Origin: Eubacteriales bacterium | GTDB taxonomy: Bacteria > Bacillota > Clostridia > Oscillospirales > JAAYXM01 | Direction of reading: 5' to 3' | Assembly (NCBI GenBank): GCA_045636865.1 | Contig: JAZTYJ010000004.1 | Coordinates: forward strand, 108,662-172,661 | DNA: 64,000 nt | In this document: positions 1 to 41,060 of the stretch, piece by piece | Numbering within the stretch: the stretch's first letter is position 1 | Layout: each line of letters starts with the position of its first letter | Program-made: the position numbers and the translations under genes | The notes under the pieces: generated by a model | The model's input: the letters and a program-made list of their open reading frames with translations, nothing else | What the model was told of the DNA's origin: nothing | The model's database searches: none

Positions 1-2
1 AG

Positions 3-1850
3 TTTGACTATGTTGTCAGCGGTGAGCTCAAGGTTCAGGTAGGCGAGCATACAGAACTTCTTCGCGAGGGCGACAGCATCTATTATGACAGCTCAACACC
101 ACACGGTATGATTGCCGTCGGCGGTCGCGACTGCGTATTCTGTGCAGTTGTTCTTCCGGGAGAGGACACAAAGGAAGAGGCGGTCCGCGACAGCGTTGCA
201 TCGCTTCGCCCGTCAATGAAGCTTGTTTGCGAAGAGTTTGTTGATACAAAGGAAAGTGAACCGGGAGTTTTGGAGAGCGTAAGCTTTAAAAACACCGAAA
301 AATTCAACTTCGGATATGACTGCGTTGATGCAGTTGCAGAAAAATATCCCGACAAGCTTGCGATGATCCACCTTGACAAAAACAAGGTTGAGCGCCGATA
401 TACCTTCAAGGATATCAAACGCGAATCTGCAAGATGTGCAAACTACTTCACATCTCTCGGAATCAAGCGCGGCGACAGGGTTATGCTCGTTCTTAAACGC
501 CATTATCAGTTCTGGTTCTCTATGGTTGCGCTTCACAAAATCGGAGCAATTGCAATCCCTGCAACTCATCAGCTTAAAGAACACGATTTTGAATATCGCT
601 TCAATGCGGCAAATGTTTCTGCAATCGTCTGCACGGTTGATGACGGTGTACCGGCAATAGTCAATAACACAGCGGAGAAGTGCCCTCAGCTCAAAACCTT
701 CGTTTCGGTTGGCGGAAGTGTTGACGGATGGCATGATTTTGATGCTGAATACCCGATGTTCTCAAGTAATTTTGAAAGAGCAGCTGATTGCTCTGCGGGC
801 GATGAACCGGCACTTATGTTCTTCTCATCCGGCACAACGGGAAATCCGAAAATGGTTCAGCACAAGCACACCTACGCTCTCGGTCATTTCGTAACCGCAA
901 AGTACTGGCACTGCTGCGAGAGAGACGGTCTCCACCTCACGATTTCCGACACCGGCTGGGGTAAATCACTCTGGGGCAAGCTCTACGGTCAGTGGCTCTG
1001 TGAGGGTGCTGTGTTCGTATATGACTTTGACCGCTTTGATGCATCGGATATCCTTCCGATGTTTGCAAAATACAACATCACAACCTTCTGTGCACCTCCG
1101 ACAATGCTCCGTATGATGATTAAAGAGGATCTTTCATGCTATGACCTCTCGTCAATTCATCATATGACGACAGCAGGAGAGGCACTCAATCCGGAAGTTT
1201 TCAAGCAGTTTGAAAAGGCAACAGGTCTTCAGATTATGGAAGGCTTTGGCCAGACTGAAACAACGCTTGCGATTGCAAACCTTTACGGAACGACTCCGAA
1301 GGTCGGCGCAATGGGAAAAGCATCTCCGCAGTATGACATCGATATAGTTGACCCCGACGGCAACCCTGTCAAAACAGGTGAGACGGGCGAAATCGTTGTC
1401 AGACTTGATAAGGGAACACCGGTCGGACTCTTCAGTTGCTATCTTGACGATGAAGAAAAGATGGAAGAGTGCATGCGCGGCGGTATGTACCATACGGGCG
1501 ACACCGCATGGCGTGACGAGGACGGATATTTCTGGTATGTCAGCCGCATAGATGACGTCATCAAGTCATCGGGATACCGCATCGGTCCGTTTGAGATTGA
1601 GAGCGTCATCATGGAACTTCCGTATGTTCTTGAATGCGGCGTATCGGCTGCTCCCGACGAGGTTCGCGGTCAGATTGTAAAGGCAAGTATTGTTCTCACA
1701 AAGGGCACAGAGCCGACAGAGGAGCTTAAGAAGGAAATCCAGAATTACGTCAAGGAAAATACGGCTCCGTATAAGTATCCGCGCCTTGTTGTATTTCGTG
1801 ACTCACTTCCGAAGACAATAAGCGGAAAAATACAGAGAAACAAGCTCTAA
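3..1850 (+). CDS. cupin-AMP-forming acyl-CoA synthetase fusion (ACSM/medium-chain-like), 5' end outside the window
   Basis: The frame is open from the window edge. Residues before the first Met (FDYVVSGELKVQVGEHTELLREGDSIYYDSSTPHG) align with the cupin part of the paralog at 2209..4497. The rest carries AMP-binding motifs (SSGTTGNPK, YHTGD, SGKIQR). Confidence 0.85.
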   Translation, partial: FDYVVSGELKVQVGEHTELLREGDSIYYDSSTPHGMIAVGGRDCVFCAVVLPGEDTKEEAVRDSVASLRPSMKLVCEEFVDTKESEPGVLESVSFKNTEKFNFGYDCVDAVAEKYPDKLAMIHLDKNKVERRYTFKDIKRESARCANYFTSLGIKRGDRVMLVLKRHYQFWFSMVALHKIGAIAIPATHQLKEHDFEYRFNAANVSAIVCTVDDGVPAIVNNTAEKCPQLKTFVSVGGSVDGWHDFDAEYPMFSSNFERAADCSAGDEPALMFFSSGTTGNPKMVQHKHTYALGHFVTAKYWHCCERDGLHLTISDTGWGKSLWGKLYGQWLCEGAVFVYDFDRFDASDILPMFAKYNITTFCAPPTMLRMMIKEDLSCYDLSSIHHMTTAGEALNPEVFKQFEKATGLQIMEGFGQTETTLAIANLYGTTPKVGAMGKASPQYDIDIVDPDGNPVKTGETGEIVVRLDKGTPVGLFSCYLDDEEKMEECMRGGMYHTGDTAWRDEDGYFWYVSRIDDVIKSSGYRIGPFEIESVIMELPYVLECGVSAAPDEVRGQIVKASIVLTKGTEPTEELKKEIQNYVKENTAPYKYPRLVVFRDSLPKTISGKIQRNKL

Positions 1851-1865
1851 ATACAGCAAAAACTG

Positions 1866-1894
1866 TTGACAATACTTGAAAGTTGGTATATAAT
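1866..1894 (+). promoter_or_regulatory. sigma-A promoter, TTGACA-17 nt-TATAAT
   Basis: Perfect -35 (1866-1871) and -10 (1889-1894) hexamers with a 17-nt spacer, directly upstream of the T-box leader. Confidence 0.8.
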
Positions 1895-1904
1895 AATTAC
1901 AAAT

Positions 1905-2185
1905 TATAAAAAGGCTTTGACGAAGAGTGCGCAGATATGGCGGGCGTTCAGAGAGATAGCGGTTGGTGCGAGCTATTGCATTGCGGTCTGCGGTTGTAGC
2001 TTCCGAGCTGAAAGGAAGAAAGCCGGTTTACGGTCAGTAGAACCTTTCCGTGATTGCTGCGTGAAGGCATAAGGCTTATTGGAGCCTGAGTGGTGCAACT
2101 TATGCACAATTTGAGTGGTACCGCGGGTGTATTGTTTTTCTCACTCGTCTCAAAGAATGTCAGCTTTGGGACGAGTGTTTTTCGT
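1905..2185 (+). promoter_or_regulatory. T-box leader (tRNA-sensing riboswitch), probable valine specifier GUA
   Basis: Stem I has a GA/K-turn-like UGACGAAG, an AG bulge AGAGAG (1950-1955) and a distal hairpin atagc-GGTTGGTGCGA-gctat. The specifier loop 3' side is GUUGUAG (1993-1999) between helices 1930-1936/1986-1992 and GAAG/CTTC. Stem III lies at 2093-2107. The conserved T-box sequence AATTTGAGTGGTACCGCG is at 2108-2125. The antiterminator 3' strand is shared with the terminator. Confidence 0.9.
2132..2182 (+). terminator. T-box-controlled intrinsic terminator
   Basis: Stem cactcgtctcaaag / ctttgggacgagtg with an 8-nt loop, followed by TTTTT. It overlaps the alternative antiterminator pairing GAGTG/CACTC. 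Confidence 0.85.
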
Positions 2186-2208
2186 TCCGGAAGAAGGAGA
2201 GTTATGTT

Positions 2209-4497
2209 ATGGAAAATATGACACAGCTTGATTTTAAAATTAAAGAAATGGCGGCGCGTATCCGCGAGCTTCGAGAGATTGAAGGCCTTTCGGTTGAAGA
2301 GATGGCGGAGAAAACAGGCGTTGAGCTTTCAGAATATCTTCGTTGTGAAAAGGGTGAGCACGACTTAAACTTCGCGTTTATTTACCGTTGTGCGGCAGTT
2401 CTTCGCGTAAACGTAACCGATATTATCGAAGGCTACAGCCCGACTCTTAAATCGTTTACGGTTACGCGTTCAGGTCTCGGTCAGAAGATAGGTCAGGCTC
2501 ACGGTATGACTTACTACAACCTTGCCTATGCGTTTCAGAATCGAATCGCCGAGCCGCTTTACGTCAGGATTTCATATGACGACAGCATAAACGAGTCTGA
2601 TATTGAGCTCACGTCACACGACGGTCAGGAGTGTGACATCATTGTTGAAGGTCATCTTATGGTGCAGATAGGGGAGCACCGCGAGATTCTCGGACCGGGC
2701 GACAGTATCTACTACGACAGTAACACACCCCACGGTATGATTGCGACAAACGGGGCAGACTGCGTTTTCTACGCAATCGTTCTCAATCCGTCAGGTGAGC
2801 CGATTCCGGAGCTTGCACCGACAAAGGCGATTTCTGACACACGCGAAATCAAGAAGGATACAAAAGAACGTATCTATCATAAATATATTGATGTCGAGGA
2901 GAACAAAAACGGAACTCCGACGTCAATTACATTCAAGAACACAGAAAAGTTCAACTTTGCGTTTGACCTTGTTGATGCTCTTGCAGAGCGTGAGCCGGAT
3001 AAGCTTGCGATGCTTCATATTGACATCAACAAAGTAGTAAGACCGTTTACATTTACCGACATCAAGCGCGAGTCTGCAAGATGTGCAAACTACTTCAAGT
3101 CTCTCGGCATCAAGAAGGGCGACCGCGTAATGCTCGTCTTAAAGCGCCATTATCAGTTCTGGTTTGCGATGATCGGTCTTAACAAACTCGGCGCAATCGC
3201 AATTCCCGCTACAAATCAGCTTCAGGTTCACGACTTTGAATACCGCTTCCGGGCGGCAGGTGTAAACACCATCATCTGCACGGCTGACGGTGAAACTGCC
3301 GCACAGGTAGACGAGGCGGCAAAGACGTGTCCCGAGCTTGTAAATAAGCTTATAGTCAACGGTGAGCGCGAAGGATGGAGAAACTTTGACGAAGAGTTCA
3401 AGCTCTTCAGCTCACACTTTGAGAGAAGCGAGGATTCTCCGTGCGGAGATGACCTTCTCCTTATGTTCTTTACATCGGGAACAACGGGATATCCGAAGAT
3501 TGCGGCACACAGCCACAAATATCCGCTCGGTCATTTCCACACAGCAAAATACTGGCACAATGTTGACCCCGACGGTCTCCACTTCACAATCTCCGACACG
3601 GGTTGGGCAAAGTCAATGTGGGGTAAGCTCTACGGTCAATGGCTCTGCGAGGCGGCAACGTTTGTTTACGACTTTGACCGCTTCGATGCAAAGGAAATTC
3701 TTCCGATGTTTGCAGAGCACAAGATAACAACCTTCTGTGCACCTCCGACAATGCTCCGCATGCTTGTTAAAGAAGACATTTCACAGTATGACTTCTCGTC
3801 CGTAAAGCATATGTCAACAGCGGGTGAGGCACTCAACCCCGAGGTTTACAGACAATTTGAAAAGGCAACGGGCCTCCAGATTATTGAAGGCTTCGGTCAG
3901 ACGGAAAGCACGATGATCATCGGTAATATGGTCGGTGCTCCGCATAAGATCGGATCTATGGGTAAGCCTGCTCCGATTTACAAGGTTGAGCTCGTGAACG
4001 AAAAGGGTGAAGAGGTTGCAATCGGTGAGACGGGTGAAATCGTCGTAAATGTAAAAGACGGTATGCCATGCGGTCTCTTTACGGGATACTACCGCGATCA
4101 GGAGAAGACAGACGAAGTCCTCCACGATGGCTACTATCACACGGGCGACACCGCGTGGCGCGATGAAGACGGCTTCTATTGGTACGTCGGACGCGTTGAT
4201 GACGTTATCAAGTCATCGGGATACCGCATCGGTCCGTTTGAAATCGAAAGTGTTATTATGGAGCTTCCGTATGTTCTTGAGTGCGGCGTATCAGCGGCTC
4301 CCGATGAGGTCCGCGGTCAGATAGTAAAGGCAAGTATCGTTCTCACAAAGGGAACTGAACCGACAGAAGAGCTCAAAAAAGAGATTCAGACATACGTCAA
4401 AGAGCACACGGCTCCGTATAAGTATCCGCGACTTGTCGTCTTCCGCGATTCACTTCCGAAGACGGTAAGCGGAAAGATTCAGAGAAATAAACTTTAA
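2209..4497 (+). CDS. XRE-HTH - cupin - AMP-forming acyl-CoA synthetase fusion protein (762 aa)
   Basis: RBS GAAGGAGAG lies 8 nt upstream. The N-terminus is an XRE-type HTH (res ~10-70). A cupin follows (GDSIYYDSNTPHG), then the adenylate-forming core (TSGTTGYPK, GYYHTGD, SGKIQR). Confidence 0.9.
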   Translation: MENMTQLDFKIKEMAARIRELREIEGLSVEEMAEKTGVELSEYLRCEKGEHDLNFAFIYRCAAVLRVNVTDIIEGYSPTLKSFTVTRSGLGQKIGQAHGMTYYNLAYAFQNRIAEPLYVRISYDDSINESDIELTSHDGQECDIIVEGHLMVQIGEHREILGPGDSIYYDSNTPHGMIATNGADCVFYAIVLNPSGEPIPELAPTKAISDTREIKKDTKERIYHKYIDVEENKNGTPTSITFKNTEKFNFAFDLVDALAEREPDKLAMLHIDINKVVRPFTFTDIKRESARCANYFKSLGIKKGDRVMLVLKRHYQFWFAMIGLNKLGAIAIPATNQLQVHDFEYRFRAAGVNTIICTADGETAAQVDEAAKTCPELVNKLIVNGEREGWRNFDEEFKLFSSHFERSEDSPCGDDLLLMFFTSGTTGYPKIAAHSHKYPLGHFHTAKYWHNVDPDGLHFTISDTGWAKSMWGKLYGQWLCEAATFVYDFDRFDAKEILPMFAEHKITTFCAPPTMLRMLVKEDISQYDFSSVKHMSTAGEALNPEVYRQFEKATGLQIIEGFGQTESTMIIGNMVGAPHKIGSMGKPAPIYKVELVNEKGEEVAIGETGEIVVNVKDGMPCGLFTGYYRDQEKTDEVLHDGYYHTGDTAWRDEDGFYWYVGRVDDVIKSSGYRIGPFEIESVIMELPYVLECGVSAAPDEVRGQIVKASIVLTKGTEPTEELKKEIQTYVKEHTAPYKYPRLVVFRDSLPKTVSGKIQRNKL

Positions 4498-4523
4498 TAA
4501 ATTATATAAAGGAGAGAATCAAG

Positions 4524-5591
4524 ATGTATAATTTTCCGGTAACAAAAACACAGAACCCGAAGCCGCATCCGCAGGATGAGTCAAAGCTCGCTTTCGGAAA
4601 GGTATTTACGGACCACATGTTCGTTATGAACTACACCGAAGGTAAGGGCTGGCACGACGGAAGAATTGTTCCTTACGAGAAACTCTCTCTTGACCCGTCA
4701 GCTATGGTCTTCCACTACGGACAGGAAATGTTTGAAGGTCTCAAGGCTTATAAGGGCCGCGACGGTAAGACTCGTCTTTTCAGACCTGATATGAACGCAA
4801 AGCGCACAAACGCTACAAACGAGCGTCTCTGCATTCCGGAGCTTCCGGAGGAGCTTTTTGTTGAAGCTTGTAAGGCAGTTGTAAAGGTTGATGAAGACTG
4901 GATTCCGACAGCTCCGGGCACATCACTCTACATCCGTCCGTTCATCATCGCAACAGACGAATTCCTCGGCGTTGCTCCGTCAAAGACATACCTCTTCATC
5001 ATTATCCTCTCACCGTCAGGTGCATACTACGCAAGTGGTCTTGCTCCGGTTGGTATCTGGATTGAAGATGACTATGTAAGAGCTGTAAAGGGCGGTATGG
5101 GCTTTGCTAAGACAGGCGGCAACTACGCAGCAAGCCTTGCAGCACAGGTTAAGGCACACGACGAAGGATATTCACAGGTTCTCTGGCTTGACGGTGTTGA
5201 AAGAAAGTACATCGAAGAAGTTGGCGCTATGAACATCTTCTTCAAGATTGACGGAAAGATCGTTACTCCGATGCTCAACGGCAGCATTCTTCCGGGTATC
5301 ACAAGAAATTCGGTAATCGAAGTCTGCAAGTCATGGGGATATGAGGTTGAAGAGAGAAGAATCAGCGTTGAAGAGCTTATTGATGCACAGAAGTCAGGAA
5401 AGCTTGAAGAGTGCTTCGGAACAGGTACTGCAGCTGTTATCTCTCCGGTCGGAAAGCTTCGCTATAAGGATGACGTTATGCTCATCAACGGCAACACAAT
5501 CGGCGAAGTCAGCCAGAAGCTCTACGATACCATTACAGGCATCCAGTGGGGCGAATGTGAGGATAAGTTTAATTGGTCAGTAATAGTTTAA
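4524..5591 (+). CDS. ilvE: branched-chain amino acid aminotransferase
   Basis: 355-aa class IV aminotransferase of BCAT type (FHYGQEMFEGLKAY, LYIRPF, GGMGFAKTGGNYA). RBS AAAGGAGAG. Confidence 0.9.
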   Translation: MYNFPVTKTQNPKPHPQDESKLAFGKVFTDHMFVMNYTEGKGWHDGRIVPYEKLSLDPSAMVFHYGQEMFEGLKAYKGRDGKTRLFRPDMNAKRTNATNERLCIPELPEELFVEACKAVVKVDEDWIPTAPGTSLYIRPFIIATDEFLGVAPSKTYLFIIILSPSGAYYASGLAPVGIWIEDDYVRAVKGGMGFAKTGGNYAASLAAQVKAHDEGYSQVLWLDGVERKYIEEVGAMNIFFKIDGKIVTPMLNGSILPGITRNSVIEVCKSWGYEVEERRISVEELIDAQKSGKLEECFGTGTAAVISPVGKLRYKDDVMLINGNTIGEVSQKLYDTITGIQWGECEDKFNWSVIV

Positions 5592-6241
5592 ATAAAAGAA
5601 TAACCCTTTTTTGCGGTCATTACGGCAGCGGAAAAACGAATATTGCAGTAAATTTTGCAATAGAGCTTGCAAAAAGGGGAGAGGCTGTCAGCATAGCCGA
5701 TATTGATATTGTAAACCCGTATTTCAGAACGAAGGACAGTATTGACGAGCTCATAGCGGCAGGAGTAGACGTGGTTGCACTTCCGTTTGCAAACACAAGT
5801 GTCGATCTTCCCGCAATTCCGTCAGAGGTTTACGGTCTCATCCAGATGAGAGACAAGCGCGTTGTAATGGATATCGGCGGTGACGACAGAGGCGCATACG
5901 CGCTCGGCAGGTTTGCGGATAAGATAAAAGAAGAAAACAGCTTTGATATGGTTTTCGTTGTGAATTTCTACCGTCCGCTGACACCCGATGCAGAGTCGGC
6001 TCTCTCAATTATGCGTGAGATAGAAGCGGCGTCAAAGATTCCGTTTTCCTGCATAATCAACAACTCAAACATCGGTGAGGAGACGCGTGCAGACGACATC
6101 AGAAAGACGATTCCGCTTGCAGAGGAGCTCTCGGAATTGTCAGGGCTTCCGGTTGTCGGAGTTTCCGCAAAGAAGGAATTTGAAAGTGAACTTGGGCTTG
6201 AGAGCTTTCTGGCTCTCAACCTTCAGAAAAAAATATTTTAG
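5573..6241 (+). CDS. P-loop NTPase (SIMIBI/G3E-like), function unknown
   Basis: Walker A GHYGSGKT and Walker B VVMDIGGDD. Apparent TTG start overlaps the ilvE 3' end by 19 nt, with GAGG about 10 nt upstream. The start site is uncertain. Confidence 0.6.
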   Translation: MVSNSLNKRITLFCGHYGSGKTNIAVNFAIELAKRGEAVSIADIDIVNPYFRTKDSIDELIAAGVDVVALPFANTSVDLPAIPSEVYGLIQMRDKRVVMDIGGDDRGAYALGRFADKIKEENSFDMVFVVNFYRPLTPDAESALSIMREIEAASKIPFSCIINNSNIGEETRADDIRKTIPLAEELSELSGLPVVGVSAKKEFESELGLESFLALNLQKKIF

Positions 6242-6253
6242 AAGGAGATTGTT

Positions 6254-6460
6254 ATGGCTAAGGTAACATTTGCGTCAGACATATGCAAGGGCTGCGGTCT
6301 TTGCGTAGGTGCATGTCCCAAGGGCATCATCACTCTTGCGACAGATAAGATCAATAAAAAGGGGCACTCTCCTGCAGAAATAACTGATCAGGAAAAGTGT
6401 ATCGGTTGCGCTTTCTGTGCAACAATGTGCCCTGACTGTGTAATTACGGTAGAAAAGTGA
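6254..6460 (+). CDS. 2-oxoacid:ferredoxin oxidoreductase delta subunit (2x[4Fe-4S] ferredoxin-like)
   Basis: 68 aa with two CxxCxxCxxxCP motifs (CKGCGLCVGACP, CIGCAFCATMCP). Confidence 0.85.
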   Translation: MAKVTFASDICKGCGLCVGACPKGIITLATDKINKKGHSPAEITDQEKCIGCAFCATMCPDCVITVEK

Positions 6461-6472
6461 GGTGTGTGAGAA

Positions 6473-7534
6473 ATGGCAGAAAAAGTTTTGATGAAAGGTA
6501 ACGAAGCTATCGCGGAAGCTGCAATTCGTGCAGGTTGCCGCCATTACTTCGGATATCCGATTACTCCGCAGACGGAAGTCGCGGCTTATATGGCAAAGAG
6601 AATGCCGAAAATCGGCGGAACATTCCTTCAGGCAGAAAGTGAAGTTTCCGCAATCAATATGGTATATGGTGTTGCAGGTGCAGGATTCCGTGTTATGACA
6701 TCCTCATCAAGCCCCGGTATATCACTCAAGCAGGAGGGTATCTCCTACATAGCAGGTGCTGACCTTCCGGCACTTATCGTTAACGTTCAGCGCGGAGGCC
6801 CCGGTCTCGGCGGAATCCAGCCGTCTCAGTCTGACTATTTCCAGGCTACAAAGGGCGGCGGTCACGGTGACTATCACCTCATCGTTCTCACTCCCGAATC
6901 CGTTCAGGAAATGGCGGATATGACAGCTTTGGCATTCGACCTTGCCGATAAGTACAGAATGCCGGCAATGCTTCTTTGTGACGGTACAATGGGTCAGATG
7001 ATGGAACCGGTTGAGCTTCCCGAGGAGCACGTAAACGTTATCGAAAAGCCCTGGGCGGTAAACGGCACAAAGGGCGAGCGTGAGCACAACATCATAAACT
7101 CACTCTACTTAAAACCCGAAATTCTCGAGGACAAGAACTTTGAGAGATACGAGAGATATAAGCTCATTGAAGAAACTGAAGCAAGACACGAAAGCTTTAT
7201 GATGGACGATGCAGAAATCTGCGTTGCAGCATTCGGTATTGCGGCACGCGTTGCAAAGAACGCAGTTGTTGCAGCCCGCAAGGAAGGCATCAAGGTCGGT
7301 ATGATCCGTCCGCTCACGGTATGGCCGTTCCCGAAGAAGGCATTTGCAGAAGCTGCAAAGCAGGTTAAGTCATTCATCAGCGTTGAGCTTTCAATGGGAC
7401 AGATGATTGAAGATGTTGCACTTGCAACAGAATGCAAAAAGCCAGTTCACCTCTGCAACCGTTCAGGCGGTATGATTCCGACACCTGAACAGGTTCTTGA
7501 GATGATCAGAGAAATCAACGGAGGTAACAGATAA
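6473..7534 (+). CDS. 2-oxoacid:ferredoxin oxidoreductase alpha subunit
   Basis: The N-terminus GNEAIAEAAIRAGCRHYFGYPITPQTE is typical of POR/KOR/VOR alpha subunits. 353 aa. Confidence 0.85.
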   Translation: MAEKVLMKGNEAIAEAAIRAGCRHYFGYPITPQTEVAAYMAKRMPKIGGTFLQAESEVSAINMVYGVAGAGFRVMTSSSSPGISLKQEGISYIAGADLPALIVNVQRGGPGLGGIQPSQSDYFQATKGGGHGDYHLIVLTPESVQEMADMTALAFDLADKYRMPAMLLCDGTMGQMMEPVELPEEHVNVIEKPWAVNGTKGEREHNIINSLYLKPEILEDKNFERYERYKLIEETEARHESFMMDDAEICVAAFGIAARVAKNAVVAARKEGIKVGMIRPLTVWPFPKKAFAEAAKQVKSFISVELSMGQMIEDVALATECKKPVHLCNRSGGMIPTPEQVLEMIREINGGNR

Positions 7535-8286
7535 TGGTAGTTTTTGAAAAACCGAAGAGCCTTACAAATGCTGAGCTTCATTACTGCCCGGGCTGTTGCC
7601 ATGGTATCATCCACAGACTCGTAGCACAGGCACTTGATAAGCTTGATATTACAGGTAAAACAATCGGTGTTGCACCGGTTGGATGTGCTGTTATGGCATA
7701 CGACTACTTCGCTTGCGATATGGTAGAGGCAGCTCACGGACGTGCTCCGGCAGTTGCAACAGGTCTCAAGCGCGCAATGCCCGATAACATCGTTTTCACA
7801 TACCAGGGTGATGGCGACCTCGCATCAATCGGTATGGCAGAGACGGTTCACTCCGCAGCAAGAAACGAGAATATCACAATCATTTTCGTAAACAATGCAA
7901 TTTACGGTATGACAGGCGGTCAGATGGCTCCGACTTCTCTTCCGGGTCAGGTTACACAGACATCTCCCTACGGCAGAGACGTAAACGTCGCAGGTTATCC
8001 GATCAGAGTTTCCGAGATGCTTGCAACACTTGACGGTCCGCAGTATATCGAGCGCGTTGCAGTCAATAACGTCAAGAACGTAAAGAAAGCTGAAAAGGCA
8101 ATTCTCAAGGCTTTCGAAAACCAGGTCAACGGAAAGGGATTCTCATTTATCGAGGTTATCTCAACTTGTCCGACAAACTGGGGTATGACACCGCAGAAGT
8201 CTCTCGAGTGGGTTGAAGAGAATATGATTCCGTACTATCCGCTCGGAGTATACAAAGACAAGAGCGCCGAAAAGGAGGAAGCATAA
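7534..8286 (+). CDS. 2-oxoacid:ferredoxin oxidoreductase beta subunit (TPP-binding)
   Basis: TAATG stop/start overlap with the alpha subunit. TPP motif YQGDGDLASIG...NNAIYGMTGGQ. N-terminal Cys pair CPGC. Confidence 0.85.
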   Translation: MVVFEKPKSLTNAELHYCPGCCHGIIHRLVAQALDKLDITGKTIGVAPVGCAVMAYDYFACDMVEAAHGRAPAVATGLKRAMPDNIVFTYQGDGDLASIGMAETVHSAARNENITIIFVNNAIYGMTGGQMAPTSLPGQVTQTSPYGRDVNVAGYPIRVSEMLATLDGPQYIERVAVNNVKNVKKAEKAILKAFENQVNGKGFSFIEVISTCPTNWGMTPQKSLEWVEENMIPYYPLGVYKDKSAEKEEA

Positions 8287-8287
8287 T

Positions 8288-8824
8288 ATGACTACACAGT
8301 TGCTTTTAGCAGGCTTTGGTGGCCAGGGTATCCTCTTTGCAGGAAAGTTTCTCGCATATAAGGGCCTTTTGGAGGGCAGAAACTTAAGCTGGCTTCCGTC
8401 TTACGGTCCTGAAATGCGCGGTGGTACAGCAAACTGCAGCGTTATCTTAAGTGATGAGCCGGTCGGTTCACCGATCGTTTCAAATCCGGATATCCTTGTT
8501 GCAATGAACCTTCCGTCTCTCGATAAGTATGAAGACGCAGTTGTGCCGGGTGGCATGATTTTCGTTGACTCTACTCTCATTGAGCGTAAGGTAAAGAGAA
8601 CTGACGTAAAGGTGTTCTACATCCCGTCAACGCAGCTTGCACAGCAGATGTCGGCACCGACTCTTGCAAATATGATTATGACAGGCAAGCTCATCCGCGA
8701 AAGCGGAATGGTTGAGAAGGAAAACATCGAAGATGCACTCAAGAAAGTCGTTTCGGCAAAGCGTGCAAACCTTCTCGAAATCAACCTCAAGGCAATCAAT
8801 TGCGGAATGGAATACGAAGGCTAA
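8288..8824 (+). CDS. 2-oxoacid:ferredoxin oxidoreductase gamma subunit
   Basis: 178 aa. [18 protein letters not shown] is typical of the POR-gamma family. It starts 2 nt after the beta subunit stop. Confidence 0.85.
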
Positions 8825-8837
8825 AAATAAACTAAAA

Positions 8838-8869
8838 AGTCAAGCTTATAGCTTGACTTTTTGTTTTTT
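8838..8869 (+). terminator. intrinsic terminator ending the ilvE-OFOR operon
   Basis: agtcaagct-tat-agcttgact hairpin followed by TTTTTGTTTTTT. Confidence 0.8.
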
Positions 8870-9926: not shown

Positions 9927-10715
9927 GTGGCAGATATTTTTGGAGAGCTTGAGTTTCATTTAAAAATCAAAAAGGGCGACGTCGGTCGTTATGTAATCCT
10001 TTGCGGAGATCCGGGGAGAGTTCCGAAAATCGCCGCGTATCTTGAAAATGCAGAAAAGATAGCAGAAAACCGCGAATATACGATTTATACAGGCTATCTC
10101 TGCGGTGAAAGGGTTTCCGTTGCATCGACGGGCATAGGCGGGCCTTCTGCCGCGATTTGCGTTGAGGAGCTTATCCACTGCGGAAGTGATACGTTTATCC
10201 GCGTTGGAACAAGCGGAGGAATCCGCGAGGATGTCATAGGTGGAGATCTCGTTATTGCGACGAGTGCGGTAAGAGCCGAGGGCACAAGCCTTGAATACTT
10301 GCCCGAGGGATATCCTGCCGCCGCTGATTTTTCTGTTGTGCGCGCGCTTTCTGATGAGGCGGAAGAGCTTTGCGACATGAGCTTCGGAAACTCATATCAC
10401 GTCGGTGTTGTGCAGAGCAAGGATTCATTCTATGGTGAAACAAATCCCGAAACAATGCCTGTTTCGGATATGCTTTTAAAGAAATGGGAGGCATACACAC
10501 GCCTTGGTTGTCTCACTTCCGAGATGGAGTGTGCCGCAATCTTTTCGGTTGCGCTGACGCGCGGAGTCCGTGCAGGTGCCGTTCTTCTTTCGATATGGAA
10601 TGTCGAGAGAACAAACAAAGGACTTGAAAGCCCTGTAAATACGGACACCGACCGCGCAATCAGATGCGCAATCGGTGCAATAAAAAGACTTATAGAAAAA
10701 GATGCAAAGAATTAA
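9927..10715 (+). CDS. udp: uridine phosphorylase-like nucleoside phosphorylase
   Basis: GTG start. Alignable over its full length with E. coli Udp from memory (CGDPGRV, STGIGGPSAAICVEEL, SEMECAA). Confidence 0.7.
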   Translation: MADIFGELEFHLKIKKGDVGRYVILCGDPGRVPKIAAYLENAEKIAENREYTIYTGYLCGERVSVASTGIGGPSAAICVEELIHCGSDTFIRVGTSGGIREDVIGGDLVIATSAVRAEGTSLEYLPEGYPAAADFSVVRALSDEAEELCDMSFGNSYHVGVVQSKDSFYGETNPETMPVSDMLLKKWEAYTRLGCLTSEMECAAIFSVALTRGVRAGAVLLSIWNVERTNKGLESPVNTDTDRAIRCAIGAIKRLIEKDAKN

Positions 10716-10731
10716 TTCTTTGCATCTTTTT
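10696..10731. terminator. perfect 36-bp palindrome serving as a bidirectional terminator; contains both convergent stop codons
   Basis: aaaaagatgcaaagaatt|aattctttgcatcttttt is A-rich on one flank and T-rich on the other. The udp stop is at 10713-10715 and the repressor stop at 10712-10714. Confidence 0.7.
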
Positions 10732-11098
10732 TGTTTATATGATTCTTTATGGCGTCAAACGTTTCATCACTTAGGTGATGCTCCATCTTGCAGGCATCTT
10801 CTGAAGCGGTTTCTTTGCTTACGCCTATGCCTTCGAGAAAGGTTGTAAGGATGGTGTGTCTTTCATATATCTTGGCAGCGACCTCGCGGCCAATGTCGGT
10901 AAGTGTGATAAAACCGTCACCGTCAACGGTGATATAACCTCCGTTTTTCAAAAGACCGACGGCACGGCTGACACTTGGTTTTGAGTATCCCATATGATCT
11001 ACAATATCAATTGAACGAAAGTTCTTTTTGCTTTCGGAAAGAATCAGAATAGTTTCAAGATACATCTCGCCGGATTCAAGAAGCGGCACGAAAAACAC
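10712..11098 (-). CDS. DtxR/MntR-family metal-dependent transcriptional repressor
   Basis: ESGEMYLETILIL...SIDIVDHMGYSKPSVSRAVGLLKNGGYI is a winged helix plus DtxR-type dimerisation region. The more likely start is GTG at 11089, 9 nt after AAGGAG. Confidence 0.8.
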   Translation of the reverse strand: MFFVPLLESGEMYLETILILSESKKNFRSIDIVDHMGYSKPSVSRAVGLLKNGGYITVDGDGFITLTDIGREVAAKIYERHTILTTFLEGIGVSKETASEDACKMEHHLSDETFDAIKNHINKKDAKN

Positions 11099-11170
11099 CT
11101 CCTTTTAGTATCATTATAATTAGAATATCATACGTAGGGGAATTTTTCAAGAAAAAATGAAAAATTCGTC

Positions 11171-11199
11171 TTGACAAACAAATGAAGGTGTGTTAATCT
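11171..11199 (+). promoter_or_regulatory. feoAB promoter, TTGACA-17 nt-TAATCT
   Basis: -35 at 11171-11176 and -10 at 11194-11199. Confidence 0.65.
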
Positions 11200-11200
11200 T

Positions 11201-11222
11201 GTAGTTAGCAAAGACTAACTAC
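11201..11222. promoter_or_regulatory. DtxR/IdeR-type operator candidate
   Basis: GTAGTTAG-caaaga-CTAACTAC is a perfect 8-bp inverted repeat immediately after the -10. It resembles the TTAGGTTAGCCTAACCTAA-type iron box. Confidence 0.55.
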
Positions 11223-11241
11223 TGCTTGTCGAAACGAAGGG

Positions 11242-11481
11242 ATGGAAAAGATGACACTTGATACGTTGAAAATCGGTGAAAGTGCAATAATAAAAAGTGT
11301 GGGCGGAGAGAAGTCTCTCCGTCTTCGTCTGCTTGATATGGGTTTGATTCCGAAAACCCGTGTTACGCTCATAAAAGTAGCTCCGATGGGGGATCCTATG
11401 GAGCTTCGCGTAAGGGGATATGAGCTTACTCTCCGCGCAGAGGATGCGAAAAAGATAGAAGTGGAGGGTGAAAAACAGTGA
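11242..11481 (+). CDS. feoA: ferrous iron transport protein A
   Basis: Small SH3-like FeoA (LKIGESAIIKSV...LLDMGLIPKTRVTLI). The second ATG at 11251 has better RBS spacing. Confidence 0.85.
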   Translation: MEKMTLDTLKIGESAIIKSVGGEKSLRLRLLDMGLIPKTRVTLIKVAPMGDPMELRVRGYELTLRAEDAKKIEVEGEKQ

Positions 11482-13487
11482 TTTTTGCGCTTGCAGGAAA
11501 CCAGAACTGCGGAAAAACAACGCTTTTTAATGTGCTGACAGGCTCAAATCAGCACGTCGGAAACTTTCCGGGCGTTACGGTAGAGCACAAAAGCGGAGAA
11601 ATCCGTGGTCAGAAAAACTGCACGGTTGTTGATTTGCCGGGTATATATTCGCTCCGTACATATACGCAGGAGGAAATAGTCGCGCGTGACTTTCTCTTAA
11701 ACGAAAAGCCTGATGCCATAATAAACATTGTTGATGCAACAAATATCGAGAGAAACTTATATCTCACGCTTCAGCTTTTAGAGCTTCGTGTTCCGATGGT
11801 GCTTGCTCTTAATATGATGGACGAGGTCAGAAAAAACAACGGTTCAATTGATCTTGCGAAGATGAGCGAGGCTCTCGGTATTCCGATAGTTCCGATCTCT
11901 GCGGCAAAGGGCGAGGGCGTATCCGAGCTTATTCATCAGGCGATAGAAACAGCAAAGAACCGCGAGGTGCCGAAGGTTTATGACTTCTGCGGCGCACAGT
12001 CGCCGGTTCACCGTTGTATTCATGCAGTTGCCCACGTTATCGAAGACCACGCCGAAAAAATCGGAATGGCGCAGAGATTCTGCATATCAAAGCTCATAGA
12101 GGGTGATGAGGATCTTGAGTCGCGCCTTGACCTTCACGCAAACGAGAAGGAACTCATAGAGCACTGTGTGGTCGAAATGGAAGGCGAAACGGGGCTTGAA
12201 AGAAACGGAGCTATTGCCGATATGCGCTACACCTTTATCGAAAAAGTGGTATCAATAGCTGTTGTAAAGGGTGGTGAGAGCCGCGAGCATATGCGCTCGG
12301 TAAAGCTTGACAGGCTGCTTACGGGAAAATTCACCGCAATGCCCGTTTTCATAGGTATTATTGCGCTTGTCTTCTGGCTTACATTCGGAGTTATAGGAAC
12401 ATACCTTTCAGACCTCCTTGCAGGAGGAATAGATTACCTTGCATCTATGTGTTCGACATTCCTTGAAAATTACGGTATAAATCCTGTAATCCACAGCTTT
12501 ATCATCGACGGTGTGTTCGCGGGAGTAGGAAGTGTTCTGTCGTTTCTTCCGCTTATCGTTACGCTGTTTTTCTTTCTCTCGATTCTCGAGGATACGGGAT
12601 ATATGGCGCGTGTTGCGTTCTTTATGGACAAACCGCTCCGCAAGGTTGGTCTTTCGGGAAAAAGCTTTGTTCCGATGCTTATAGGATTTGGTTGTACCGT
12701 ACCTGCGATTATGGCAACTCGCACGGTTTCGTCAGACCGCGACAGAAAAATGACGATGCTTCTGACTCCGTTTATGAGCTGCTCGGCAAAAATTCCTATT
12801 TATGCAGTATTCGCAGCGGCATTCTTTCCGGGGCACAGCGCACTTGTTATGACAGGGCTTTATCTTTTCGGTATTGTGCTTGCAATCTTGTTTGCGCTCA
12901 TTCTCAAAACAACAACGTTCCGCGGAAAGCCGGTTCCGTTTGTTATGGAGCTTCCGAATTACAGAATGCCGTCTTTAAAAAGTGTGTCGCTTCTTCTCTG
13001 GGAAAAGGCACGCGACTTTATAGAGCGCGCATTCACGATAATCTTTTTTGGTACCATTATAATCTGGTTTTTGCAGACATTTGACACTCGTCTCAATCTC
13101 GTTTCTGACAGTGCAGACAGCCTTCTCGCAATTGTAGGGCGCGCAATCGCTCCGATTTTCAGACCGCTTGGGTTTGAAGACTGGCGCGTTGCAACATCGC
13201 TCATTTCGGGCTTTACTGCAAAGGAGGCGGTAGTTTCGACGCTCTCCGTTCTTTTAGGTACGGGAATGTCAAACCTTCCGTCAGCGCTCTCATCACTTTT
13301 CACTCCGCTTTCATCAATAAGCTTCCTTGTGTTTACGCTTCTCTACACTCCGTGTGTCGCGGCGATTGCGACATTCAGGCGCGAGCTTAAGAGCCTTCCG
13401 GCAACACTTGGCGTGATAGTTCTGCAGTGTGCAATCGCATGGGGGGTTGCGTGGGTTGTCTACGTAATCGGAGGACTTATCATATGA
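11478..13487 (+). CDS. feoB: ferrous iron transporter B
   Basis: GTG start overlaps the feoA stop. G-domain GNQNCGKTTLFN and DLPG, with a polytopic C-terminal part. Confidence 0.95.
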   Translation: MIFALAGNQNCGKTTLFNVLTGSNQHVGNFPGVTVEHKSGEIRGQKNCTVVDLPGIYSLRTYTQEEIVARDFLLNEKPDAIINIVDATNIERNLYLTLQLLELRVPMVLALNMMDEVRKNNGSIDLAKMSEALGIPIVPISAAKGEGVSELIHQAIETAKNREVPKVYDFCGAQSPVHRCIHAVAHVIEDHAEKIGMAQRFCISKLIEGDEDLESRLDLHANEKELIEHCVVEMEGETGLERNGAIADMRYTFIEKVVSIAVVKGGESREHMRSVKLDRLLTGKFTAMPVFIGIIALVFWLTFGVIGTYLSDLLAGGIDYLASMCSTFLENYGINPVIHSFIIDGVFAGVGSVLSFLPLIVTLFFFLSILEDTGYMARVAFFMDKPLRKVGLSGKSFVPMLIGFGCTVPAIMATRTVSSDRDRKMTMLLTPFMSCSAKIPIYAVFAAAFFPGHSALVMTGLYLFGIVLAILFALILKTTTFRGKPVPFVMELPNYRMPSLKSVSLLLWEKARDFIERAFTIIFFGTIIIWFLQTFDTRLNLVSDSADSLLAIVGRAIAPIFRPLGFEDWRVATSLISGFTAKEAVVSTLSVLLGTGMSNLPSALSSLFTPLSSISFLVFTLLYTPCVAAIATFRRELKSLPATLGVIVLQCAIAWGVAWVVYVIGGLII

Positions 13488-13623: not shown

Positions 13624-13660
13624 GCAGAAGTTTACAATGTAAACTTCTGCTTGATTTTTT
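13624..13660. terminator. bidirectional intrinsic terminator
   Basis: gcagaagtttac-aat-gtaaacttctgc is a 12-bp stem, flanked by an A-run and TTGATTTTTT, between convergent genes. Confidence 0.8.
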
Positions 13661-15624: not shown

Positions 15625-15650
15625 TTTTATTAATCCTTTCAGATATAGTT

Positions 15651-20733: not shown

Positions 20734-20761
20734 CAAAAGCCTGCAGAGAAGAGGTGTATTT

Positions 20762-25326: not shown

Positions 25327-26544
25327 ATGAAAAAGATTGCAGTTTTAGGGTACGGTACGGTCGGATCGGGGGTTGTAGAACTTTTTGAGCAGAATAAAGA
25401 TTCGATTGCAAATCACCTCGGCGAGGAGATTGAAGTAAAATATATCGTAGACATCCGCGATTTCTCTTCAGACAAAAATGCGAAAAAGTTTGTAAAGGAC
25501 TTTTCGATAATTGAAAACGATTCTGAAATTTCCGTAGTGGTTGAAACTATCGGAGGTCTTAACCCGGCATACGATTTCACAAAGCGCGCGCTTCTCTCCG
25601 GAAAGAGTGTTGTAACTTCAAATAAAGAGCTTGTTGCAACACACGGCGCAGAATTTTTTGAAATTGCAAAGGACAAAGACGTAAGCTATCTCTTTGAAGC
25701 CTCGGTCGGCGGCGGAATCCCCGTAATCCGTCCGATAGCGCAATGTCTTGCCGCAAACAAGATCGACGAGATTTACGGAATATTGAACGGCACAACAAAT
25801 TACATTCTTACGCGTATGATAAAGGCGGGGCTTACTTTTGAGAAGGCTCTTGCAGAGGCTCAGGAGCTCGGCTATGCAGAGCGCGACCCGAGCGCAGATA
25901 TCGAAGGACACGATGCGTGCCGAAAAATCTGCATCCTTGCATCCCTCGCTTTCGGAACGCACATTTCTCCGGCAAACATTCCGACGGAGGGAATCACCAA
26001 GGTAACACTTGATGACGTGAACCTTGCGGGCAAGGCAGGAAAGGTCATTCGCCTTTTAGGTCGCACCGTTCTCTCAGACGATGGCAAGGTTTATGCATAT
26101 GTAGGTCCGCATCTTGTTGATAAATCCTCTCCGATTGCAGCTGTTGAAGATGTTTTCAATGCCATTATGGTTCACGGAAATATGGTAGGAAACACTATGT
26201 TCTACGGTCCGGGTGCAGGAAAGTTCCCGACAGCAAGCGCAGTTTGTGCAGACGTCATCGATGCGATAAAGCATATCGGTACGAAAAAGTACATCGGCTG
26301 GAAGCCAGAGCGCGAAGGCTCACTTGCGGATATGGGCAAGCTTCAGTCGAAGTTCTACGTTCACGTTGACGGCGAAAACGTTAGAAGTGCGGTAACACAG
26401 GTGTTTGGTGCTGTTGAGTTTATAAGTGATGAGCTTGCAACAGCGTTCATCACAGAAAAACTTTGCGAAAAGGACTTCGCAACGAAGCTTCAGACACTTT
26501 CTGAGAGATGCGACGTTCTTTCATCCATGCGCGTTCTCGGATAG
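25327..26544 (+). CDS. hom: homoserine dehydrogenase
   Basis: N-terminal GYGTVGSGV, a catalytic region (VTSNKELVA...EASVGGGIP) and a C-terminal ACT-like tail. Confidence 0.9.
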   Translation: MKKIAVLGYGTVGSGVVELFEQNKDSIANHLGEEIEVKYIVDIRDFSSDKNAKKFVKDFSIIENDSEISVVVETIGGLNPAYDFTKRALLSGKSVVTSNKELVATHGAEFFEIAKDKDVSYLFEASVGGGIPVIRPIAQCLAANKIDEIYGILNGTTNYILTRMIKAGLTFEKALAEAQELGYAERDPSADIEGHDACRKICILASLAFGTHISPANIPTEGITKVTLDDVNLAGKAGKVIRLLGRTVLSDDGKVYAYVGPHLVDKSSPIAAVEDVFNAIMVHGNMVGNTMFYGPGAGKFPTASAVCADVIDAIKHIGTKKYIGWKPEREGSLADMGKLQSKFYVHVDGENVRSAVTQVFGAVEFISDELATAFITEKLCEKDFATKLQTLSERCDVLSSMRVLG

Positions 26545-40436: not shown

Positions 40437-40447
40437 GAAAAAATAAA

Positions 40448-40482
40448 ATCTCCTGATGCAAAATTGCATCAGGAGATTTTTT
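40448..40482. terminator. bidirectional intrinsic terminator
   Basis: atctcctgatgca-aaat-tgcatcaggagat, a 13-bp stem, followed by TTTTTT. Confidence 0.85.
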
Positions 40483-40484
40483 GT

Positions 40485-41057: not shown

Positions 41058-41060
41058 TGA

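Follow-up and report, generated by a model that had tools for sequence, protein, structure and literature searches.

The 64,000-nucleotide window analysed here, from an uncultured Oscillospiraceae bacterium of the gut or rumen, opens with a set of genes in which an acyl-CoA synthetase, a branched-chain aminotransferase and a four-subunit 2-oxoacid:ferredoxin oxidoreductase (OFOR) follow a T-box leader, raising the question of what such a combination of enzymes is for and in which direction it operates. T-boxes switch on genes by which the cell obtains more of the cognate amino acid, and ruminococci and other rumen anaerobes are said, from the work of Allison and Bryant, to make branched-chain amino acids by carboxylating branched-chain acids. 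Judging from the sequence, we consider it likely that the locus is a valine-starvation-induced operon making valine from exogenous isobutyrate. If so, it would provide candidate genes for a pathway of the rumen whose biochemistry has been known since the 1960s. The carboxylation of branched-chain acids is mentioned in the literature (PMC7356843), and a search of the accessible literature found no earlier description of a T-box-gated unit of this kind.

Between positions 1866 and 8863 the promoter is followed by the T-box leader, the HTH-cupin-acyl-CoA synthetase, ilvE, a P-loop NTPase gene, the four OFOR genes and a terminator (Table 1), and each element listed in a preliminary description of the locus was found at its place. 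The genes of this Val unit are separated by −19 to +26 nt. The TAATG overlap of the alpha and beta genes reported at 7534 is correct and amounts to 1 nt, while the 2-nt gap given for 8286/8288, at the vorB/vorG junction, is in fact a spacer of 1 nt (8287). The terminator scan detected strong + strand terminators only at 2142 and 8833, and a single mRNA from about 1900 to 8863 would cover the genes from the synthetase through the OFOR. The synthetase gene at the window edge (gene 1), previously listed with the operon, is present and truncated at its 5' end but is part of a separate Ile-T-box unit rather than of the Val unit. For comparison we used 80 related loci from herbivore-gut Oscillospirales (rumen, hindgut and faecal), 49 of which contain enough downstream sequence to be informative about linkage. 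In 36 of the 49 the P-loop gene and vorDABG lie downstream of the Val-T-box synthetase, an order that recurs across species, and 35 of these 36 complete clusters also include ilvE; the remaining 13 carry the Val-T-box synthetase without an adjoining oxidoreductase. The linkage of synthetase and oxidoreductase is thus frequent, not universal.

Table 1. Positions of the features of the locus within the window, with the basis of each assignment.
Feature	Position	Strand	Basis
Acyl-CoA synthetase paralog (gene 1), 5'-truncated by window edge	1..1850 (frame 3-1850)	+	Pfam
Sigma-70-type promoter of Val unit, TTGACA-17-TATAAT	1866..1894	+	12/12 consensus match
T-box leader (Stem I with specifier loop, Stem II, IIA/B, Stem III, antiterminator)	1908..2155	+	Rfam RF00230
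Specifier codon GUA (Val)	1996..1998	+	position in Rfam alignment
T-box sequence AAUUUGAGUGGUACCGCGGG	2108..2127	+	invariant in 92 leaders
Leader terminator hairpin, 14 bp, and U-tract	2142..2182 (hairpin 2142-2177)	+	terminator scan
Val-type HTH-cupin-acyl-CoA synthetase (gene 2), 762 aa	2209..4497	+	Pfam, NCBIfam
ilvE, branched-chain amino acid aminotransferase (class IV)	4524..5591	+	NF009897, TIGR01123
SIMIBI-class P-loop NTPase, 222 aa, Walker A GHYGSGKT	5573..6241	+	weak CbiA/ParA matches
OFOR delta, 2x[4Fe-4S] ferredoxin-like, 68 aa	6254..6460	+	Fer4 families, OorD/PorD_KorD models
OFOR alpha (POR_N and PFOR_II), NCBIfam name VorB	6473..7534	+	NF005507
OFOR beta, TPP-binding	7534..8286	+	TPP_enzyme_C
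OFOR gamma	8288..8824	+	PF01558 POR
Intrinsic operon terminator, 14-bp stem and U-tract	8833..8869 (hairpin 8833-8863)	+	terminator scan

The promoter had been described as matching the consensus, and it is indeed the sole perfect sigma-70 match within the first 10 kb; related loci keep an equivalent (TTGACA-17-(TG)nTAtAAT) about 25 nt ahead of the leader. The leader itself matches all 219 positions of the RF00230 model (1-219) with 86.7 bits (E=1.2e-19), 6 bits below the curated gathering score of 93, and because of this shortfall a default Rfam scan misses it. Aligning 92 homologous leaders reveals compensatory changes in 24 of the 44 predicted pairs, and the terminator helix, whose 5' arm overlaps the antiterminator's 3' arm, is kept with G-U-compatible changes. 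Within the T-box sequence, UGGU (2116-2119) is positioned for pairing with the tRNA 3' end (A73-C-C-A), the variable position of UGGN being U in 117/117 leaders. The scan found no terminator between the stop of gene 1 (1850) and the −35 element (1866), and the leader terminator probably also ends transcripts arriving from the upstream Ile unit.

After the GUA specifier come the purine G1999 and, at 2000-2003, the closing helix CUUC. A Val codon occupies this position in all 72 orthologous leaders of the oxidoreductase-linked synthetase (GUA in 69, GUC in 2 and GUG in 1), whereas across the same loci neither the −1 register (TGT/CGT) nor the +1 register (TAG/TAA/TCA/TGG) corresponds to one amino acid. 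Together with the full-length model match, these synonymous exchanges and the failure of the other registers support the Val T-box proposed earlier. The upstream paralog has a T-box of its own, with the Ile codon AUC as specifier in 45/45 cases, and both leaders are found in 42 loci. For L001 and L047, the nearest relatives, the Rfam model confirmed the Ile leader: a full-length T-box with an AUC specifier lies upstream of the gene 1 orthologs, which are 83% identical to gene 1.

The two synthetases of our locus are 67% identical to each other. Gene 1 begins within Cupin_2 and continues with AMP-binding and AMP-binding_C, and it carries the Ile-class residue at 4/4 class-specific positions of the catalytic domain (G/L/G/L); it belongs to the Ile-type class, its own leader lying outside the window. 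Gene 2 consists of HTH_3/HTH_31, Cupin_2, AMP-binding and AMP-binding_C, with the N-terminal HTH and cupin module (about 215 aa) encoded by 2209-2853. A branched-chain substrate had been suggested for it, in agreement with its nearest characterised relatives, MacsMa and MbcS, which are the two short branched-chain acyl-CoA synthetases known so far. The match to MacsMa (PDB 3ETC) scores 629 bits, with about 52% identity over the whole catalytic domain, and MbcS is the top NCBIfam model; at 440 bits against an equivalog cut-off of 850, however, gene 2 falls far short of it, so that its substrate specificity is extrapolated. MacsMa prefers 2-methylbutyrate (PMC10455477), and MbcS selectively activates 2-methylbutyrate and isobutyrate (PMC10026030). 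When the pocket is mapped onto Acs, A467 corresponds to V310, A538 to V386 and G563 to W414, the last a replacement of Trp by Gly with an alternate Trp retained; W449 lies in a KYW motif. At the position aligned with Acs Val310, the Val-gated class has Ala, whereas the Ile-gated class and MacsMa share a Gly. Ala in place of Gly leaves one methyl less room, in keeping with an acid of C4, not C5, for the Val-gated class. On these grounds gene 2 is a predicted isobutyrate-CoA ligase, and gene 1 is predicted to activate 2-methylbutyrate.

The resemblance to MbcS also allows for a different, though unlikely, role, namely that the ligase scavenges isobutyrate and 2-methylbutyrate for iso- and anteiso-fatty-acid primers, exactly as MbcS does in S. 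aureus, with the T-box signalling a shortage of amino-acid-derived primers and with IlvE and the OFOR acting oxidatively or being incidental. The 13 loci with a T-box-synthetase unit and no neighbouring oxidoreductase would fit such a role. Oxidative IlvE and OFOR co-induced by valine starvation would, however, use up the scarce amino acid, and nearly all complete clusters (35/36) keep both behind the Val leader. In addition, the T-box targets we know of are aminoacyl-tRNA synthetases, amino acid biosynthesis genes and transporters. Primer supply and valine synthesis are compatible, as isobutyryl-CoA could feed both.

Valine synthesis from isobutyrate would call on the remaining enzymes of the unit as well. 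IlvE passes its equivalog cut-offs with both NF009897 (508 bits against 307) and TIGR01123 (423 against 250). The alpha subunit of the OFOR passes NF005507 (VorB; 556 bits against 399), and fails both the model for 2-oxoglutarate synthase alpha (242 against 579) and the pyruvate models (at most 110 bits), in line with the earlier assignment as a branched-chain enzyme rather than a generic KOR/VOR; 'VorB' is a family name, and we infer the branched-chain 2-oxoacid specificity. For delta, which has two CxxCxxCxxxCP motifs, and for beta and gamma, the top-scoring models are of the Oor/Kor type, with no match reaching its cut-off. The closest solved structures are those of a P. furiosus 2-keto-acid enzyme whose specificity is not defined and of 2-oxoglutarate enzymes, 8ys5 and 6n2n being among the nearest for the beta and alpha chains. 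These matches would suit a 2-oxoglutarate synthase (KOR/OGOR) that supplies 2-oxoglutarate and glutamate, the amino donor of IlvE, and carboxylates no branched acyl-CoA. We regard this as quite improbable given the alpha scores, the failure of beta on KorB (124 against 364), the neighbouring MacsMa-like monocarboxylate ligase, which is not a succinate ligase, and the Val-specific sensor, an odd control for glutamate supply. The P-loop NTPase gene stands directly 5' of vorD in 54/55 cases. Its reading frame starts with TTG and shares 19 nt with the end of ilvE; gene calls made independently yield the same 222-aa product. The AF2 model (pLDDT 84) finds its best folds among SRP GTPases, ATPase-type HypB and ParF (TM 0.5-0.6), and no conserved cysteine motif was found in the protein; it is possibly an OFOR maturation or assembly factor.

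Under the proposed mechanism, transcription from the strong promoter would enter the leader, where the GUA specifier would pair with the anticodon of tRNA-Val. The 3' end of uncharged tRNA-Val would pair with UGGU and stabilise the antiterminator, allowing the polymerase to read through, while with charged tRNA-Val the hairpin would terminate transcription. The AMP-forming ligase would then turn isobutyrate, ATP and CoA into isobutyryl-CoA, the OFOR, running in reverse, would carboxylate this with CO2 and reduced ferredoxin to 2-oxoisovalerate, and IlvE would transfer the amino group of glutamate to give valine. Gene 1 of the sister Ile (AUC) unit would provide for isoleucine from 2-methylbutyrate via the shared OFOR and IlvE; a lack of isoleucine would not by itself be expected to open the Val terminator ahead of these, which leaves the regulatory logic incomplete. 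Like the preliminary description, we infer the biosynthetic direction from the starvation sensor that would induce the unit; to this we add that AMP-forming ligases are effectively irreversible. Very unlikely, then, is a catabolic route from valine to isobutyrate by IlvE and an oxidative VOR, with the ligase recycling CoA esters: VOR is generally known to be oxidative in peptide-fermenting archaea and clostridia, but the T-box is on when tRNA-Val is uncharged and valine scarce, the opposite of catabolic logic, and the ligase is AMP-forming (PF00501), unlike the ADP-forming synthetases or phosphotransacylase and kinase pairs of energy-conserving catabolism. The KOR of C. thermocellum has been cited for the oxidative direction (PMC11365079). 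Least credible of all is a decayed, non-functional T-box relic in an operon that is constitutive or under the fused HTH domain alone, since, the score below the gathering threshold aside, the complete model match, the invariant 20-nt T-box sequence, the covarying stems, the intact overlap of terminator and antiterminator and a specifier that selection has kept as Val in 72 loci all stand against it.

The leader shares its architecture (Stem I, II, IIA/B, III, antiterminator), device and logic with known T-box systems, in which uncharged cognate tRNA blocks termination and biosynthetic genes are induced. Its targets differ, being a ligase, a ferredoxin oxidoreductase and a transaminase that would start from a fermentation acid instead of the acetolactate pathway; separate Val and Ile leaders mark two paralogous ligases, and the specifier is GUA where known T-boxes usually have C in the third position. 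Gene 2 resembles MacsMa and MbcS as an AMP-forming ligase with Gly at the Acs Trp414 position and an alternate pocket Trp, but adds the fused XRE-HTH and cupin module, and its proposed sink is amino acid synthesis and not, as for MbcS, lipid primers. Trigger enzymes such as BirA, itself an adenylate-forming ligase, and PutA likewise carry a fused DNA-binding domain, and gene 2 shares with them the N-terminal helix-turn-helix (putatively DNA-binding) on a metabolic enzyme; here, however, a cupin forms the sensor-like domain, and the T-box already provides regulation. No operator for the HTH domain was found.

The OFOR belongs to the same TPP/[4Fe-4S] family, with the same delta-alpha-beta-gamma set, as the CO2-fixing archaeal VOR and the OGOR and PFOR of the reverse TCA cycle, whose reversible reaction is driven by low-potential ferredoxin. 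It falls into the bacterial 'VorB' (NF005507) subfamily, closer to Kor/Oor-type enzymes than to archaeal VOR, and is preceded by a dedicated SIMIBI NTPase gene, a partner not described for archaeal VOR, OGOR or PFOR. The closest physiological parallel is the reductive carboxylation of the rumen: Allison, Bryant and co-workers reportedly showed from the 1960s to the 80s, by labelling in ruminococci, that rumen bacteria build Val, Ile and Leu from branched-chain volatile fatty acids. To our knowledge, and in the searchable literature, this pathway had been linked to neither a gene cluster nor a regulator. Chemistry and ecology are the same, our loci coming from Oscillospirales, relatives of the ruminococci; but where the rumen work was physiological, a specific gene set and its sensor are proposed here.

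Six-frame ORF calling and Pfam/NCBIfam scans of the first 8.9 kb of the window recovered the whole gene order given in the preliminary description, from the synthetase through ilvE, the P-loop gene and the genes of a four-subunit (delta, alpha, beta, gamma) 2-oxoacid:ferredoxin oxidoreductase (OFOR; vorDABG) to the closing terminator. The intergenic junctions of the operon range from -19 to +26 nt; the TAATG overlap reported at 7534 is present in the sequence, and the spacer at the junction after the beta gene, described as 2 nt, measures 1 nt. The IlvE protein, a class IV BCAT, exceeds both equivalog cut-offs, that of NF009897 and that of TIGR01123 (423 vs 250). Canonical ilv or leu genes were not encountered among the larger ORFs scanned in the window.

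Genes and signals in the first 8.9 kb of the window
Feature	Position	Strand	Remarks
Gene 1, synthetase	frame 3-1850, off left edge	+	cupin remnant and AMP-binding
Gap between gene 1 and gene 2		+	358 nt
Sigma-70 promoter of Val unit	1866-1894	+	12/12 consensus, sole such match in region
Intrinsic terminator, strong (leader)	2142-2177	+	
Gene 2, synthetase	2209-4497	+	762 aa; HTH_3/HTH_31, Cupin_2, AMP-binding, AMP-binding_C
IlvE	4524-5591	+	NF009897 508 bits, cut-off 307
P-loop protein	5573-6241	+	222 aa
OFOR delta, alpha, beta, gamma subunits	6254-8824	+	Pfam/NCBIfam
Intrinsic terminator, strong (operon end)	8833-8863	+	

A relative of the fusion protein is encoded in at least 597 species genomes, among which we picked 80 related Oscillospirales loci for comparison. 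Almost all of these belong to MAGs of Oscillospiraceae, Acutalibacteraceae or Ruminococcaceae recovered from the gut of goat, sheep, cattle, deer, yak, horse or human, and the named cluster members are all MAGs, with no cultured carrier among them. An nhmmer search of 81 sequences with the leader of the window gave 130 matches, spread over 75 of them. The P-loop gene and vorDABG were found in 36 of the 49 informative loci, defined as those with at least 6.5 kb of sequence downstream of the Val-gated synthetase (the one behind a leader with a valine specifier codon). All but one of these 36 also carry ilvE (35/36), which follows vorG in 30 cases and takes the position seen in the window in five. 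In 13/49 loci the leader-synthetase unit stands alone beside unrelated genes. Downstream of one such stand-alone Val-T-box synthetase lies a pair of ORFs of 593 and 196 aa (L073:14814-17187), which match indolepyruvate oxidoreductase IorA/IorB in size.

The leader upstream of gene 2 (1908-2155) matches Rfam RF00230 over all model positions (1-219) with E=1.2e-19 and 86.7 bits in a permissive scan; as this score falls 6 bits short of the curated gathering cut-off (93), the default Rfam scan misses it. Aligned to the Rfam model, the specifier loop has the sequence GUU-GUA-G-CUUC-C-GAG, which places the codon GUA at 1996-1998, ahead of a purine and then the closing helix. Leaders ahead of gene 2 orthologs carry a valine codon at this position in 72/72 cases (GTA 69, GTC 2, GTG 1). 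Shifting the register by -1 yields TGT or CGT and by +1 TAG, TAA, TCA or TGG, which leaves valine as the only consistent specifier; a Cys UGU reading is ruled out by the CGU variants and a stop or Ser reading by the occurrence of TAG and TAA. All of 92 leaders share the T-box sequence AAUUUGAGUGGUACCGCG without change, the UGGN bulge is UGGU in 117/117, and double compensatory changes occur in 24 of the 44 pairs that RNAalifold reports for the alignment of 92 leaders. The leader terminator overlaps the 3' arm of the antiterminator, the two helices being mutually exclusive, and in the related loci a promoter of the form TTGACA-17-(TG)nTAtAAT lies about 25 nt upstream of each leader. The T-box assignment and its valine specificity, both put forward in the preliminary description, are thus borne out by the full-length match, the conserved Val specifier and the covarying helices. 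Read-through of the leader is predicted to depend on uncharged tRNA-Val.

A second T-box precedes the upstream paralog in 45 loci, with the Ile specifier ATC in 45/45, and 42 loci carry both the Val and the Ile leader. Since the leader of gene 1 lies beyond the edge of the window, the closest relatives, L001 and L047, stand in for it (gene 2 ortholog 85-87% identical, gene 1 ortholog 83%). In both, Rfam matches the two leaders as full-length T-boxes with 81-87 bits, and the upstream leader reads GAAAccu-AUC-A-CUUC-UGAGC. Gene 1 itself has the residue of the Ile class at all four class-specific positions of the catalytic domain. The proposal of a valine T-box operon therefore holds from gene 2 on and does not extend to gene 1, which by its class residues and the AUC leaders of its relatives is assigned to a separate isoleucine unit. 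No terminator was found between the stop codon of gene 1 (1850) and the Val promoter (1866), so transcripts of the Ile unit should end at the Val leader terminator unless valine is also short. A shortage of isoleucine by itself would not be expected to open the Val terminator, which stands ahead of the oxidoreductase and IlvE that both units would share.

Several variations on this arrangement were observed in the related loci. In a few of them (L045:6760-11746 and L066:3203-8100) both synthetase genes, 29-40 nt apart, lie behind one Ile (ATC) T-box, and the single leader and close spacing suggest that the whole cluster may be Ile-gated there. Most Ile-type promoters (e.g. L001:~6960-7020) have a T5-6-N-A5-6 tract directly upstream of the -35 element, which Val-type promoters lack; it resembles an UP element, though a protein site is also conceivable. 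In many loci, though not in the window, a third unit near the cluster is headed by a Leu T-box (CUC 11/11), so that Ile, Val and Leu sensors lie side by side in the neighbourhood. It was seen in L020 (9791-14804; leader 123 bits against RF00230) as well as in L002, L005, L015, L021, L027, L032, L039, L061, L064 and L079, and encodes a LeuA-like protein with HMGL-like and LeuA_dimer domains (about 460 aa), a fusion of about 835 aa joining a xylose-isomerase-like TIM barrel to an AMP-binding enzyme, and an Amidohydro_2 protein.

The catalytic core of the gene 2 product (PF00501 217 bits, PF13193 74 bits) aligns end-to-end with PDB 3ETC (629 bits, ~52% identity), the structure of Methanosarcina acetivorans MacsMa. 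That enzyme prefers 2-methylbutyrate; it has Gly in place of the pocket Trp of Acs, and an alternate Trp259 lines the pocket (PMC10455477). The same features of an enlarged acyl pocket are present here: G563 takes the place of Acs W414 in the alignment, and a KYW motif aligned to MacsMa contains W449. The best NCBIfam model is MbcS, an enzyme that selectively activates 2-methylbutyrate and isobutyrate (PMC10026030); with 440 bits against an equivalog cut-off of 850, the gene 2 synthetase is a relative of MbcS and not its equivalog. Comparison of 71 Val-gated with 45 Ile-gated synthetases, taking positions at least 90% conserved within each class and different between them, identified 16 class-specific positions, 12 in the HTH-cupin module and four in the catalytic domain. 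One of the latter, A467, aligns with Val310 of Acs; the Val class has Ala here, and the Ile class shares Gly with MacsMa. In the alignment with E. coli Acs, the residues V310, T311, V386 and W414, which we take to form the acetate pocket, land on the expected motifs. The direction of the Ala/Gly difference fits the specifier labels, in that the putative C5-acid class keeps Gly and the putative C4-acid class would have one methyl less room. A preference for isobutyrate or 2-methylbutyrate is accordingly predicted from the relatives, the T-box specifiers and the Ala/Gly exchange at the Acs-V310 position.

We consider it probable that the operon serves the synthesis of valine from isobutyrate upon valine starvation, by the consecutive action of ligase, oxidoreductase and transaminase. 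Uncharged tRNA-Val would stabilise the antiterminator and allow read-through into one mRNA, from which an isobutyrate-CoA ligase, an OFOR converting isobutyryl-CoA to 2-oxoisovalerate by reductive carboxylation with reduced ferredoxin, and a transaminase yielding valine would be produced. That the enzymes might mainly supply lipid primers is unlikely, as a sensor for valine and the co-induction of IlvE suit such a role less well.

The same two features weigh against a reading of the oxidoreductase as a 2-oxoglutarate enzyme. The four-subunit set is complete, with POR_N/PFOR_II, TPP_enzyme_C, POR and 2x[4Fe-4S] domains. The alpha subunit scores above the cut-off of the NCBIfam VorB subfamily (NF005507, 556 vs 399 bits) and below those of the 2-oxoglutarate synthase alpha model (242 vs 579) and the pyruvate models. 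For the beta, gamma and delta subunits the nearest models are of Kor/Oor type, with scores under their cut-offs, and the nearest solved structures are 1yd7, a 2-keto-acid enzyme of P. furiosus, and the 2-oxoglutarate enzymes 8ys5 and 6n2n. With Kor/Oor-type models and 2-oxoglutarate structures nearby, homology does not fix the substrate specificity; published OGOR specificity residues by which to test this rival were not found in the accessible literature. We regard a 2-oxoglutarate enzyme as very unlikely beside the valine sensor and IlvE, and infer 2-oxoisovalerate/isobutyryl-CoA as the substrate pair, used in the CO2-fixing direction. The biosynthetic direction is suggested by the starvation-induced sensor, the effectively irreversible AMP-forming ligase and classical rumen physiology; catabolism, again a poorer fit to the sensor and the co-induced transaminase, is highly improbable. 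A dead leader, which accords less well with the same two observations, can hardly be credited.

The P-loop gene lies directly before vorD in 54/55 cases, and its product is listed as 'hypothetical protein' in the databases. Mrp/ApbC/NifH-type ATPases are marked by conserved cysteines (CxxC or a bridging pair) and by the deviant Walker A motif KGGxGK[ST], both of which are absent here: the Walker A motif reads GHYGSGKT, without the signature Lys, the protein has conserved motifs of its own, no conserved Cys column was found across 58 orthologs, and the NCBIfam Mrp/ApbC models give at most 26 bits. A NifH-/Mrp-like cluster carrier or ATP-driven electron donor was rejected for want of the conserved Cys pair and the KGG signature. 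The AF2 model, which is a confident one (pLDDT 84), matches Ffh/FtsY, ATPase-type HypB and ParF with a Foldseek probability of 1.0, the matches being distant (TM 0.5-0.6, 15-20% identity). By its predicted fold the protein is thus an orphan subfamily of SIMIBI-class NTPases, and the example of other SIMIBI proteins that partner metalloenzymes makes a part in maturation or assembly of the OFOR our best guess for its role.

In both ligase classes the N-terminal module consists of HTH_3/HTH_31 followed by Cupin_2 (Pfam), as in XRE-cupin transcription regulators. It is 64-77% identical within and 43-62% identical between the classes, compared with 72% between classes for the catalytic domain, and free-standing XRE-cupin homologs (about 185 aa) share 31-45% identity with it. 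Inspection by eye of the surroundings of 117 promoters and leaders gave no conserved palindrome or operator. A speculative possibility, to which we give a fairly low probability, is that the HTH-cupin ligases are ligand-sensing 'trigger enzymes', either feedback-inhibited by Val/Ile or sensing each its own acid and binding DNA, which would give the operon a further input at the protein level, and that the SIMIBI NTPase, as a dedicated partner dependent on nucleotide, matures or energetically assists an OFOR run uphill in the CO2-fixing direction.

Elsewhere in the window, an iron module (10712-13487) directly follows the neighbours of the operon and comprises a DtxR-type repressor (10712-11098, -), FeoA (11242-11481) and FeoB (11478-13487). 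Tandem paralog pairs of DUF4838 and melibiase-like genes (13660-17612, -, and 18838-22660, +), with a periplasmic-binding-protein-like gene between them, look like a glycan-utilisation patch. Genes for hom (25327-26544) and aspartate kinase (26585-27787) follow, and the sporulation genes SipL and DpaA/DpaB (28600-30138 and 40485-41936) point to a spore-forming member of the Clostridia. A THF riboswitch (43484-43589, -; 70 bits, above the gathering score) precedes an ORF without Pfam match (~42872-43470, -) and then BacA/UppP (42060-42866). A weak His_leader match at the 3' end of a CitMHS transporter gene (40357-40484, +; 39 bits vs a gathering score of 49, E=0.009) is probably due to chance. 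At 46509-48504 (+), tRNA-Arg(ACG) lies directly upstream of thrS. This gene is commonly T-box-controlled in Firmicutes; no T-box was found before it here at E<=0.01.

It has been known for some 60 years that fibre-degrading rumen bacteria need branched-chain volatile fatty acids, which they carboxylate into amino acids. The locus offers a concrete and widespread candidate gene set for this carboxylation, its genes and control being unassigned in the literature searched, and opens the pathway to enzyme assays, labelling and leader assays. The Val and Ile specifiers would label which paralog serves which amino acid, in agreement with the one-residue pocket difference, and the cluster draws attention to a putative CO2-fixing oxidoreductase whose NTPase partner had gone unnoticed. 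It could also provide metagenomic markers for branched-chain-acid-dependent bacteria, with a bearing on feed supplementation. The fusion ligase is encoded in at least 597 species genomes, and the assignment corrects generic or misleading source annotations ('AMP-binding protein', 'acetyl-CoA synthetase', 'cupin domain-containing protein'); thousands of database homologs bear no more specific name than 'AMP-binding protein', 'acetyl-CoA synthetase' or 'hypothetical protein'.

In keeping with the preliminary description, which knew of no account of this unit as a T-box regulon, a full-text literature search returned none linking a T-box with isobutyrate, VOR or reductive carboxylation, the surveys of Vitreschak 2008 and Gutierrez-Preciado 2009 lying outside its reach, and the T-box targets of Wels 2008 include none of this kind. 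The GUA specifier of the Val leader departs from the T-box 'C rule' for specifiers (PMC7583486), to which the Ile and Leu leaders conform. T-box, AMP-forming ligase, OFOR and BCAT are all of known kinds and the chemistry is classical; what is new, as far as established, is the control of these genes by Val and Ile T-boxes, with specifier codons that label paralogous ligases, together with the HTH-cupin fusion and the NTPase partner.
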